In this document: piece after piece, positions 42,557 to 58,550 of the stretch | Position numbering within the stretch: the stretch's first letter is position 1 | How the letters are laid out: every line of letters begins with the position of its first letter | Source of the DNA: Eledone cirrhosa | Taxonomy: Eukaryota | NCBI GenBank assembly: GCA_964016885.1 | Contig: OZ024742.1 | Span: 155,372,001 to 155,436,000 of the forward strand | Direction: 5' to 3' | DNA: 64,000 bases | Translations under genes and position numbers: made by a program | Notes under the pieces: model-generated | Databases searched by the model: none | The model's input: the letters and a program-made list of their open reading frames with translations, nothing else | Told to the model about the DNA's origin: nothing

Positions 42557-43340
42557 GTAATAATAATAAATTTAAAGACTAAAATCCAAAGAGGGCTCGT
42601 TAAGGATAAATATATATCAAATATATAAGAACCGTAGAGCAAATATTTATTAAAATAAGATATTAAAGTTTAAGCAAAGAATCGCTGCTTTCACCCTTAA
42701 CGGGATCTTCTGAAACTAACAAAGTCAATCTGTAAACACAGAAGTGGATATTTCAAAAAACGTTGCAACCGGAGGAAGACAGGAAGACGATACTTTGGTT
42801 CGTGGAAACGTTCGCTATGCAAATAAGTAATGGTATAAACAAAACATACTTAGCTCCCACATCAAGACGTAAAATATCCACGTATAAACCGTACTATCCG
42901 TTAGGGTATAACGTGGGGCTGTGATATAGGAAAGTTTTGTGCAATTTATGTTTACAAGCCGAAATTGCCTCAGAATTTTTGTTTAAGATGTGGTCTGTGG
43001 CGTAGAGTATTTCCAGGGCCTCAGCGGCGCAGAGGTCACATGGTCTTTTATTTCCGTTATACGATCTAGCCCTAGCTAGGATCTCCCAGCGTAACTTATA
43101 TTGTGTGTGGTTGTCTTTTAGACTCCAGATATAAGCTGTAAGTGACGTCACATTCCTTCTTAGAGGTTAACGAAAATAATGGGTATGCATGTAAAGACGC
43201 TGCTTGAATCTATTGGCGGTTAACCCTATGTAGGCCCTACGGGACGTGGGTGTTACAACCTTACATTTGTAGACAATGTTACTAGAGAGGCATTTCTCGG
43301 ATAGGGGTCAATCAACAGAGATTCCTACAATTACAGTTAC
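42557..43340 (-). mobile_element. Naiad-like Penelope 3' fragment (GIY-YIG), intron-less copy
   Basis: CNCR...CLSSNIVYKCKV...YIGLT...TSLTAYIWSLK...CDLCAAE...LNKNSEAISACKHK; 3' UTR ends at (TA)n; clade name tentative. Confidence 0.85.
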
Positions 43341-43397
43341 ACATATATTTATGCGCGTGTGTATATGTGAGGCGTATGAGTGAATATGTGTGTGTGT

Positions 43398-43515
43398 TTA
43401 GTAGTAGTAGTAGTAGTAGTAGTAGTAGTAGTAGTAGTAGTAGTAGTAGTAGTAGTAGTAGAAGCAGCAGTAGTAGTAATAGTAGTAGCAGTAGTTTAGT
43501 TGTAGTAGTAGTAGT
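43398..43515. repeat. (TAG)n trinucleotide microsatellite
   Basis: Direct reading. Confidence 0.95.
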
Positions 43516-44619
43516 ATCGTCAACGTTAAATCGCTGATATTTACCATTATAATAACGAATGCAGTACGAAACGCCCGGGCTTAAGCATGGTAATAAATAT
43601 CATGTGACAATGCGTGGAGCAATCATATGAAAGCAGTGGCTTAACAGTTTCTGGGGTTTGTATGTGTAACCCTGTAGCATTAGATTTCAATTCGATGTTT
43701 CTACTATATATCGGTTAGAGAATCAAGTGATTCATTTATCAATAGTTTGTAAGAAACATACTGGCCTCAAACGAATATTCTGGAAGCTAAGCGCTTGGCC
43801 ACTCTTGGAAAATTAAGTCGCTGTTCAAACAAAAAAAGATCGATAATGACTGATTGTATTATTAGAAGTGTACATGGAATATTGTTCTTCAAATATTTAT
43901 CATTCACATTCTAACACAATCTACCGCTCTGTAAGAACATTGAACATTGATTACTAGTTTGGTGTAAGCGACAGCTTGTGTTATGCAACAGAATCTAAAG
44001 TCCGCATTGAAGAACGTTTTGCAAACTTGTCAATAAACAGCACCTTTCAAACATAGCAGATCATGAAGCAACTTAAACAGAATAGGCATTGATGCAAATC
44101 GCTTAATCTTATGCATGCAGAACTGTTTGAAGAGAGATATAGAGGGAGGAGGAAGAAAATGATACAAATTAAATGAGAGAATGATGAAGTTAGAAAGGGC
44201 ATTAGAGAGAGAAATTATTCGCTTCAGTTCAGTTAATAAATTATTAATCTCTCCACCAACCAAAGATGACTAAATTCACAAAGCAGATGGTAAATGAAGC
44301 CGATACTGATCAATAGAATTGTATAGGCGCATAAATGATGGAAATTATTGAGTAAATATGAAATAGTTCTATAAGTTTGTATGCTCTGAGTATATTTTAG
44401 TTGATACGATACGTTAGAAATCTTTCTTCTCCTTCTTCTTCTTCTTCTTCTTCTAATCTTAATTTATTATAATTATTACAATGACGTCAACACTAATATC
44501 GATAACATTTAACATCAGTGGGGATGAGGATTATCATTGAAAAGATGATTATGATGATGTCGACGGAATTTATAATGATGAATACGGTGATAGAGATGAT
44601 GGAGGTGTTGATGGCTATC

Positions 44620-55487: not shown

Positions 55488-55672
55488 TCAAATGTATTAT
55501 TATTACTATATATATATATATATATATATATATATATATATGTGAAAAAATGGGGAGAAGAATACTGCATGGTTGCACATGGATAACATGTTATAAAATG
55601 AGTCCCTCATCAGTATATATATATATATATATATATATATATATATATATATATATATATATATATATATAT

Positions 55673-56061
55673 ATCAATGGAAGTTTAGTAAAATCTAAGC
55701 TCCGGCTGCAGCCAAGCCAACGAGACACAAAGAAGAATTGTGCAGCCAAGCAATCGATGAGGAATCTCAAAGTAATAACATTAGTTAGACGGCATGGCAA
55801 ATTGAAAACTGTGGCAGGCAAATCCAACAACGACACCGAAGCAACGAAATTTATATTTATATATATATATATAACCTGTTGGTTTGCTCGTTGCTTCGGT
55901 GTCGTTGTCGGGTTTGCCTGCCACAGTTTTCAATTTGCGATGCCGTCTAACTAATGTTATTACTCTGAGATTCCTCATCGATTGCTTGGCTGCACAATTC
56001 CTCATTGTGTCTCGTTGGCTTGGCTGCAGCCGAAGCTTAGTTTTACTAAACTTCCATTGAT
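55673..56061. repeat. Hairpin with ~175-bp arms and a TA-containing spacer
   Basis: 55673-55847 is inverted at 55889-56061; TA tracts outside. Confidence 0.85.
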
Positions 56062-56212
56062 ATATATATATATATATATATATATATATATATATAAATG
56101 AGAGGTATAGAGATTGTTTTAGTAAGAAGCTAACGGCATTCTATAACATATATATATATATATATATATATATATATATATATATATATATATATATATA
56201 TATATATATATA

Positions 56213-58550
56213 GTAATAATCATAAATTTGAAGACTAAAATCCAAGGATAAATATATATCAAATATATAAGAACCGTAGAGCAAATATTTATTAAAATAA
56301 CAGATTAAAGTTTAAGGAAAGAATCGCTGCTTTCACCCTTAACCGGATCTTCTGAAACTAACAAAGTCAATCTGTAAACGCAGAAGTGGATATTTCAAAA
56401 AAACGTTGTAACCGGAAGAAGACAGGAAGACGTTACTTTGGTTCATGGAAACGTTCTTTGCAAAGAACGGGAAAAAACGAATATAATACGTCATTAATAG
56501 GAGCGGTGAAAACCAATTTCACGCAAAGACAGAACCACGTTTATGGTATGAAAGAATTCGTAGACTAATGTTCTCTTAGGTGGTTCATAGAGACGTTATC
56601 TGGCAATGAACGGAAAAAACGAAGATAATACGTCGTATGTGGAGCAAGGAGAACAATTGCACGCAAAGACAAAACCACGTAAATGGTATAGCTGAAGTCG
56701 TAGACTAAAATTCTAACTAGGGAACCGAATGAATAACCGTTTCAGAGGTAAGAATAAAATCAATAAAATACAATACAAAGGCAATAGAAATTAAATAAAT
56801 ACATACACGCATGCAAATACGTACATACACAAGCATACGCGAAAACACTTGCCATAGGTATACAAACCCACGCACATATAAATGTGTGTGTGTGTGCGTG
56901 TATACAAATAAATAAATAATTAAATAAACGTATATAAATAAATAAATATGTATATAACAACCGCACACACATACCTGCATGTAAATACACAAATGTTCGG
57001 AGACGTAAGTCAACCAAAACATGAAGTACACATATACACACACCCAACATACGTACGAACCTGCATACTTACACAGACGCAAAACTCCCGTATACACATA
57101 ACCAAACCATATGTACCGGAATATATAAAAAGTTATACGCCATAACATATACAATCAAATATACGTACGAGAAAGTATACGTATCTTCACAAAACATACA
57201 GGTAATATATACTTACCTATGCAAATAAGTAATGGTATAAACAAAACATATACTTAGCTACCACATCAAGACGTAAAATATCCACGTATAGATCGTACTA
57301 TCCGTTAGGGTATAATGTGGGGCTGTAATACAGGAAAGGTTTGTGCAATTTATGTTTACAAGCCAAAATTGCCTCAGATTTTTTGTTAAGGATGTGGTCT
57401 GTAGCGTAGAGTATTTCCAGGGCCTCAGCGGCGCAGAGGACACATGGTAATTTATTTCCGTTATACGATCTAGCCCTAGCTAGGATCCCCCAGTGTAACT
57501 TATATTAGGTGTGGTTGTCTTTTAGACTCCAGATATAAGCTGAAAGTGACGTCATATTCCTTCTTAGAGGGTAACGAAAAGAATGGGTATGCATGTAAAG
57601 ACTATGCTTGAATCTATTGGTGGTTAACCCTATGTAGGCCCTACGGGACGTGAGTGTTTCAACCTTACATTTGTAGACAATATTACTAGAGAGGCATTTC
57701 CCGGATAAGGGGCAATCAACCCGATTCCTACAATTACAGTTACTACTTACTACAGGGTTGCACGTGTTCCTACGGCTAGGTAGTTTAGCAAAATTTGAAG
57801 CTGTGATGTTATGTGCAAGATTAGGAGTCGTAGAGTAAAAAATGTTAATAGTATTTCTATTAAAAATGTTACTATATTTATGTGTAGGGGGAAATGCTTC
57901 GTAATAAGGGAAATAAATATCTTAGCTAATGGTGTGGCCACCTCCATATTATATGGTGGGTTATACCAACAAATGCGACGGGATCTATTTTTTCTAAGTC
58001 TATTTTCGTACTCAGTATACGCTACCTTATCGACAAATCCACTCCGAGCAAGAGCTTCATTGTAATAAGTGGAATGGTCGTTGAAAATATGCTCGTTAGT
58101 AGATAGACGGGAAAGCCTCAACGAAACGTGTTTTACCAGGTTCTTGGTTATGCTGGCAGGATGGTTGGAATGCTTACATATGTAAGTAAGCGTATCATTC
58201 GGCTTTCTATACGGGTAATACAACCCATTCTATAAATTAAGGGTAACATCGCGGTAATTAACAACCGAGAGAAAGGCCTCAACCTGTATAGAGAGGTTGA
58301 AGCCTTTAAAGAAGGCTGTGAGTTCTTTTCTGAACCTGTCGCAAGCACGAGGTCCACACTTAGTCATGGTAAAAAGACCATCATCACGGTGCAAACCAAC
58401 GCCCGCGTTGGGGAATTCGTCCTTGATAGAGAAAAGAAGGAAAAGGCCGATAAGATCAGTAACCACCGCAGAATCGCTGGCGCCCATACTCACGTCGAAT
58501 GGGGGTAATATTGGATTTTTTAATCCAAATAGAGTCGTCGAATATAATCA
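56213..58550 (-). mobile_element. Naiad-like Penelope element, 5'-truncated, intron-retaining, frameshifted RT + GIY-YIG
   Basis: FDVSMGASDSA...GLHRDDGL; PYRKPND...SNHP; RRICWYNPPY; CNCRNRVDCPLSGKCL..NIVY; clade name tentative. Confidence 0.85.
56458..57216 (-). other. Putative spliceosomal intron in the 3' UTR/pLTR of the Naiad-like element
   Basis: Donor catag|GTAAGT at 57216; segment precisely absent from the 42.8-kb copy (junction 42814/42815); intact acceptor ttttgccAG| in the inverted arm at ~58589. Confidence 0.75.

Follow-up and report, generated by a model that had tools for sequence, protein, structure and literature searches.

Two copies of a Penelope-like element

The window analyzed here, 64,000 nucleotides of Eledone cirrhosa DNA (assembly GCA_964016885.1, contig OZ024742.1, positions 155,372,001 to 155,436,000 of the forward strand), contains two truncated copies of a Penelope-like element (PLE), one of which keeps an intron-like segment that is exactly absent from the other. 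Their features are the following (a slash marks a junction):

42485..42556, no strand: (TA)n target tract adjoining the short copy at its 3' end
42557..43339, minus strand: intron-less, 5'-truncated Hydra-clade PLE copy of subfamily 'C0' (the short copy), 96-97% to reference parts from L061
42661..42720, minus strand: predicted hammerhead-like motif in exon 2, with the variant core CAGAAGA...GAAA (U4 to A), CAGAAGA lying at 42706-42712
42814..42815, minus strand: exact exon 1/exon 2 junction CATAG/CGAACG, recurrent in the genome
42894..42896, minus strand: stop codon of the open reading frame (ORF) for reverse transcriptase (RT) and GIY-YIG, 79 nt ahead of the junction
56148..56212, no strand: (TA)n target tract adjoining the long copy at its 3' end
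56213..58555, minus strand: intron-keeping, 5'-truncated copy of subfamily 'G1' (the long copy), with ORF remnant, intron and exon 2
56439..56714, minus strand: two ~140-bp diverged repeats (79%) across the acceptor, the upstream one having a second pyrimidine tract and AG
56458..57216, minus strand: intron of 759 nt, donor GTAAGT at 57216-57211, acceptor decayed in the long copy
57298-58555, minus strand: broken RT/endonuclease (EN) ORF remnant of the long copy
58553..58755, plus strand: inverted second arm, with the last ~36 nt of the intron, an intact AG at 58587-58588, and exon 2 as far as the inner 3' end (E172)

The original prediction that the short copy lacks 759 bp is confirmed by a global alignment of 42541-43360 with 56201-57770, which yields a single gap of that length. 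This gap can be placed at 56457-57215 or at 56458-57216, with one mismatch in both placements; we set its edge at 57216 because on the coding (minus) strand the missing segment then opens with the donor CATAG/GTAAGT. The aligned spans are 42557-43339 in the short copy, which comprises the ORF end, the 3' untranslated region (UTR) and exon 2 up to the outer 3' end (E259), and 56213-57743 in the long copy; sequences flanking the gap are 93% and 89% identical, and 14 nt at 42588-42601 are also absent from the long copy. The predicted junctions read as described, CATAG/CGAACG in the short copy and TTTTGCCAG/GGAACG in the inverted arm. The acceptor of the long copy itself has decayed to TTTGCAA/A, while the inverted arm retains both pyrimidine tract and AG and passes beyond E172 into (TA)n/(TG)n. 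The two copies are of different subfamilies (G at site 2208 together with C at position +1 of exon 2, versus T at site 2208), and the short copy is therefore not a spliced product of the long one.

Identity and anatomy of the element

That the element is Penelope-like holds: a single ORF encodes an RT followed by a C-terminal GIY-YIG EN, with a YRDD motif in the RT and an IVY..AYIG motif in the EN, both conserved with homologs, and sequence motifs assign it to the Hydra clade. Pfam was of little help, with no match for P0001, the ORF pieces of the window missed, and only a weak RVT_1 match for one homolog. Hydra-clade features include an RWK motif, DKT, a CxCx5C linker, CxxC/CxH without CCHH, and insertion into (TA)n (PMC8557442). 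In the translation of L061 we find RLRWR, SDKTGN (DKT in place of DKG) and GFKSY, where GxKF/Y is not conserved; the linker has CxCx5C, CCHH is absent, and CxxC and CxH occur around the E and N of the EN. The family inserts into (TA)n, and its unit measures 2508 nt without the intron, under the 3 kb of Hydra-clade elements, and ~3.27 kb with it. Its pseudo-long terminal repeats (pLTRs) derive from partial tandem or inverted units with an optional tail, as in other EN-containing PLEs, and end at E172 or E259. By its predicted protein, we file the family as a Hydra-type PLE with a variant hammerhead core.

In copies reaching the ORF start (L113, L116, L124, L127, L138), exon 1 is followed by the intron, then by exon 2 and then by the ATG. 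The donor lies 79 nt past the stop codon and the acceptor 302 nt ahead of the ATG of the next unit. The segment is thus a pLTR intron, that is, a Penelope-type 5'-UTR intron of the next unit, which appears behind the stop codon only because the pLTR is repeated. The earlier placement of the intron in a 3' UTR/pLTR downstream of the stop was right as to the pLTR and the stop; in full-length copies, however, the intron also lies upstream of the ATG and is not only a 3'-UTR intron.

Intron-less junctions across the genome

We counted junctions over the 3.0 Gb genome, the unit being the junction rather than the insertion, since many insertions are two-armed. The last 16 nt of exon 1 have 3308 exact matches, which continue with GTAA in 2790 cases, with CGAA in 190 and with [AGT]GAA in 100, the latter consisting of 93 exon 2 sequences and 7 mutated donors. 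The identical junction, whose recurrence the original prediction had proposed to count, is therefore not unique to the short copy but found at 190 C-type and 93 G/A-type places. Using matched 16-letter patterns, we obtained 265 intron-less junctions, 2910 GT donors and 6843 AG acceptors. This corresponds to an intron-less share of 8.3% by donors and 3.7% by acceptors, or 4-8% of copies. AG/NGAAC-type joins occur in 145 of 146 intron-less units, these units having been selected by pattern.

Intron-less copies include two full-length elements (L061:3359-6330 and L239:2260-7699), both with direct pLTRs devoid of the intron. Furthermore, 85 of 110 intron-less copies extend more than 100 nt upstream of the junction. 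Most thus continue into the ORF, which implies that the pLTR behind the stop codon has been spliced too, and not the leader alone.

Splicing or deletion of the segment

The intron measures 741-766 nt in most copies. Among 119 intron-keeping units, each letter of GTAAGT is kept in 114-119, the final A in 118 and the final G in 117; the family acceptor is intact, with a pyrimidine tract and CAG. Variable columns number 91 of 766 in the intron, only 1 of 35 in its first 10 and last 25 nt, 24 of 1000 in the ORF end and 5 of 172 in exon 2. Judged from the alignment, variation is distributed as in a working spliceosomal intron, with the marks of the U2 type: a GT donor consensus and a pyrimidine tract with AG acceptor, selectively conserved. 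When three contig runs of one sample were compared with the long copy, none of the 15 joints listed, out of 48, measured 759 nt, which for a repeat says nothing either way.

The segment might instead have been lost when the RT jumped on its template, or by DNA deletion between short direct repeats, as TTTGC..AG is found at both ends: exon 1 terminates in TTTGCATAG and the intron in TTTGCCAG. One copy, L341 (1247-1538, with only 30 nt of exon 1), is indeed joined at the TTTGC repeat. However, this 5-nt repeat was used once, against 283 joins at the 2-nt AG, and the 140-bp duplicate of the acceptor region was joined in none of the 100 listed [AGT]GAA junctions. Together with the selective conservation of the splice signals, this makes jumping or deletion extremely improbable as the source of the intron-less junctions. 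The AG of the upstream 140-bp repeat, considered as an alternative acceptor, was discarded on the same count (0 of the 100 listed).

One loss or many

For a phylogenetic analysis we fetched 160 stretches: 20 were selected by length, 80 were intron-less loci (40 C-type, 40 G/A-type) picked mostly in the order of the list, and 60 were intron-keeping loci, the first ones listed. After addition of the search loci and removal of duplicates, 270 junction units were available, a number that later rose to 297. Seven haplotype groups can be told apart by diagnostic sites, and intron-less copies are present in all seven. A tree was built from 69 copies with at least 1150 nt of ORF end, 31 of them intron-less; the +1 site was excluded and, at loci known to have two arms, so was the second arm. 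A tree uniting the 31 intron-less copies in one clade is rejected (p-AU 6e-48); the starred branches require at least 3 changes of state, and bootstrap trees show 10-13. In addition, to the left and right of the junction alike, intron-less copies carry the diagnostic sites of intron-keeping subfamilies (L092/L093; L183/L184/L191).

One may ask whether a single loss produced an intron-less master element that amplified as a subfamily of its own. Such a scenario could draw on the enrichment of intron-less copies in C0, where a direct count gives 95 intron-less versus 272 intron-keeping junctions (26%, G-type joins being outside this count), on the full-length intron-less elements L061 and L239, and on a starred clade of four intron-less copies in the 69-copy tree. 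Rejection of monophyly refutes it as sole cause, the G/C polymorphism at exon-2 +1 is present in both states, and once intron-keeping C0 copies are added, L333 falls within the four-copy clade and the states intermix. We hold a master element to be very unlikely, although an intron-less source may have made a minor contribution within C0. An intron-less master lineage in C0, hinted at by the 69-copy tree, was abandoned as unsupported after this addition. Within C0, the subfamily richest in intron-less copies, states are mixed like shuffled labels (13 changes versus a mean of 13.6, 229 of 500 shuffles being as low), and 28 of the 29 listed alleles with at least four carriers occur in both states. 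Loss of the intron has recurred from intron-keeping sources in at least three subfamily backgrounds, and probably in six; there is no sign of intron-less copies founding a lineage of their own.

3' ends, arms and template strand

Intron-less and intron-keeping copies end at the same two positions: E259 and E172 account for 44 and 37 of 90 intron-less copies, and for 27 and 34 of 63 intron-keeping copies (p 0.31). Internal priming at two sites has been shown in vitro for a PLE protein acting on sense RNA, and the E172/E259 ends of both forms match these two sites and the tail (PMC11167929). Among 182 parsed loci, 54 have at least two junctions per contiguous chain; 26 of these chains are all intron-less, 26 all intron-keeping and 2 mixed, so that 52 of 54 are concordant. 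Both mixed chains (L197, L240) are interrupted by (TA)n runs, and we rejected them as single insertions of mixed state.

An antisense template has been proposed for intron-keeping PLE copies, the choice between antisense and unspliced sense template being left open in that work (PMC3846280). Two routes could then be at work here, intron-keeping copies coming from an antisense template and intron-less copies from occasional sense mRNA. This would explain a retention of 92-96% even if most mRNA were spliced, as it is in Penelope (PMC2377424). On the other hand, both forms have their ends at one and the same pair of 3' sites on (TA)n and occur in inverted and tandem arrangements of the same kinds, and the two-site priming observed in vitro is on sense RNA (PMC11167929). 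We regard two separate routes as very unlikely.

Interpretation

The reading that we favor, and consider quite probable, is that of a Hydra-clade PLE whose pLTR holds a GT-AG intron-like segment, kept by most copies and exactly absent from 4-8%, likely because the RT copies sense RNA that is usually unspliced and occasionally spliced. The RT/GIY-YIG protein would nick (TA)n, and priming would take place in exon 2, at E172 or E259, on a pLTR-ORF-pLTR sense RNA. The captured RNA would mostly still be unspliced and the intron kept; were the RNA spliced beforehand, every arm would be copied without intron. Intron-less copies would mostly be dead ends, which fits the loss of reporter expression when the Penelope intron is deleted (PMC2377424). 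The earlier proposal that both spliced and unspliced RNAs integrate appears correct, given an identical junction in many copies and the presence of both states: it is likely, judging from the genomic copies, that the element is copied from sense RNA and that spliced RNA has been copied back into DNA many times.

Several points weigh against this reading. Removal from RNA is something we infer from exact genomic loss, and what points to a sense-RNA origin of the intron-keeping copies is their shared architecture alone. The remaining 228 of the 3308 exon-1 matches, which fall outside the classes counted above, may include other breakpoints, although their number is compatible with point changes at ~2% per site. 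That inverted arms agree in state would follow if one pLTR were the source of both, and direct tandems are present in just 8 concordant chains, two of them intron-less at both pLTRs (L061, L239). The trees are star-like, and a C0-only tree has no starred branch (p-AU 0.038). Finally, because three intron-less copies (L016, L084, L235) combine a C-type body with G at exon-2 +1, recombination or homoplasy occurs and could spread the junction between subfamilies.

The intron-less share differs about tenfold between subfamilies. C1-C3, a young clade with T at -17 and a divergence of 1.1-1.4%, account for 12 of the 86 intron-less copies but for 64 of the 99 intron-keeping ones (p 1e-12; hand count of the first 100 listed matches of each), which from these matches gives a share of ~2% in C1-C3 versus ~16% in the other groups. 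As C1-C3 form one clade, the lower share there may represent one event. We also noted that 19 of 110 intron-less copies, versus 1 of 59, end at most 40 nt upstream of the junction (p 0.002), as might be expected if transcription began just upstream of the donor. Ends within 18 nt of it amount to 14 of 100 versus 1 of 100; a control with stubs of intron that precede the acceptor and lie equally far from the priming site gives 5-7 of 100. A sharp transcription start at -17 was dismissed, since this control lowers the signal to p 0.05-0.17 and the stubs spread over 7-18 nt. As nonsense-mediated decay follows a 50-55 nt rule, splicing of the 3' intron, which lies 79 nt beyond the stop codon, could also target the RNA to this pathway.

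More tentatively, and with somewhat less than even confidence, we suggest that the splice state is set once per RNA molecule, the template being either a pLTR-ORF-pLTR transcript that is fully processed or else a monomer or circle that is copied more than once, so that even full-length tandems would lose both introns together, and that the youngest subfamilies capture spliced RNA ~10 times less than older ones.

PLEs are known for retaining introns, and the significance of this has been called unknown (PMC8557442). Here, ~280 exact intron-less versus ~2900 intron-keeping junctions, of repeated origin, indicate that spliced sense RNA can integrate over the whole element, which bears on the question of sense versus antisense template. 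The tenfold difference between subfamilies offers natural variants for testing what decides retention. If the more tentative suggestion above is true, intron retention would reflect how fast sense RNA is spliced relative to its reverse transcription, a race that can be tuned, rather than being an antisense by-product, and the family would document in the genome which RNA serves a PLE as template.

Comparison with known systems

Processed retrocopies made by LINE-1 likewise lack introns exactly, spliced RNA having been reverse-transcribed. The present family differs in having no poly(A) tail, in that internal priming in (TA)n sets its ends, and in that the processed form is the minority. Our literature search found no paper counting intron-less genomic PLE copies, although older key papers may mention rare ones.

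The closest likeness, judged by eye from the supplement of PMC8557442, is to Hydra-1_Obim: both have RWR/RWK and DKT, CxCx5C, no CCHH, CxxC/CxH in the EN, insertion into (TA)n and ~2.5 kb without intron. The families are distinct, as motif searches of that supplement gave no exact match; its two 'intron' matches are Physarum rows and none is Hydra, whereas our family has a 760-nt pLTR intron. Chlamys-3_cRei also has a 5'-UTR intron in its pLTR (PMC8557442). In Penelope of Drosophila virilis (Schostak et al. 2008, PMC2377424), a pLTR intron upstream of the ORF is retained genomically, as here; it measures 75 nt versus ~760 nt, and the available part of that article describes spliced and unspliced RNA with no intron-less genomic population, against ~280 such junctions in our case. 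Poseidon PAc of Anolis (Frangieh et al. 2024, PMC11167929) has two internal priming sites and an optional tail, similar to E172 and E259, which are 87 nt apart; its sites lie inside the ORF rather than before the ATG, and the portion of that study available to us deals with no intron.

A variant hammerhead core

Canonical hammerhead ribozymes are described as universal in the Hydra clade (Craig et al. 2021, PMC8557442). In contrast, the core reads CAGAAGA in 250 of 270 units of our family and CUGA in none, although the helices can be drawn. The hammerhead fold of exon 2 is not the minimum-energy fold (z -0.6 and -0.2), and a search of Rfam returned microsatellite noise only and no hammerhead. 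The CAGAAGA core (U4 to A) is fixed in all subfamilies, and the family has amplified to thousands of copies, suggesting that cleavage is dispensable or that the variant core works otherwise. Two other sites of the window, 6332-6602 and 3995-4054, are fold-back stumps of the same Hydra family, consisting of exon 2 only, with a hammerhead-like end and located in (TA)n.

Other elements in the window

A second, unrelated PLE, broken and with an inverted end, lies at 30041-33782 (minus strand), with pieces at 40266-41473 and 53698-54163. It encodes RT and GIY-YIG, a Cys-rich linker and two Cys inside the EN, and we take it to be Neptune-like; intact-looking ORFs of this element are present in L063 and L066. 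Broken non-LTR RT fragments, presumably RTE/CR1-like, are found at 20487-21542, 8029-8499 and 44898-45260. Palindromic elements of 270-890 bp, some flanked by TA, occur at 21974-22864, 46298-46571, 54859-55234, 55675-56059, 59288-59796 and 15968-16674, and may be MITE-like or PLE fold-backs.

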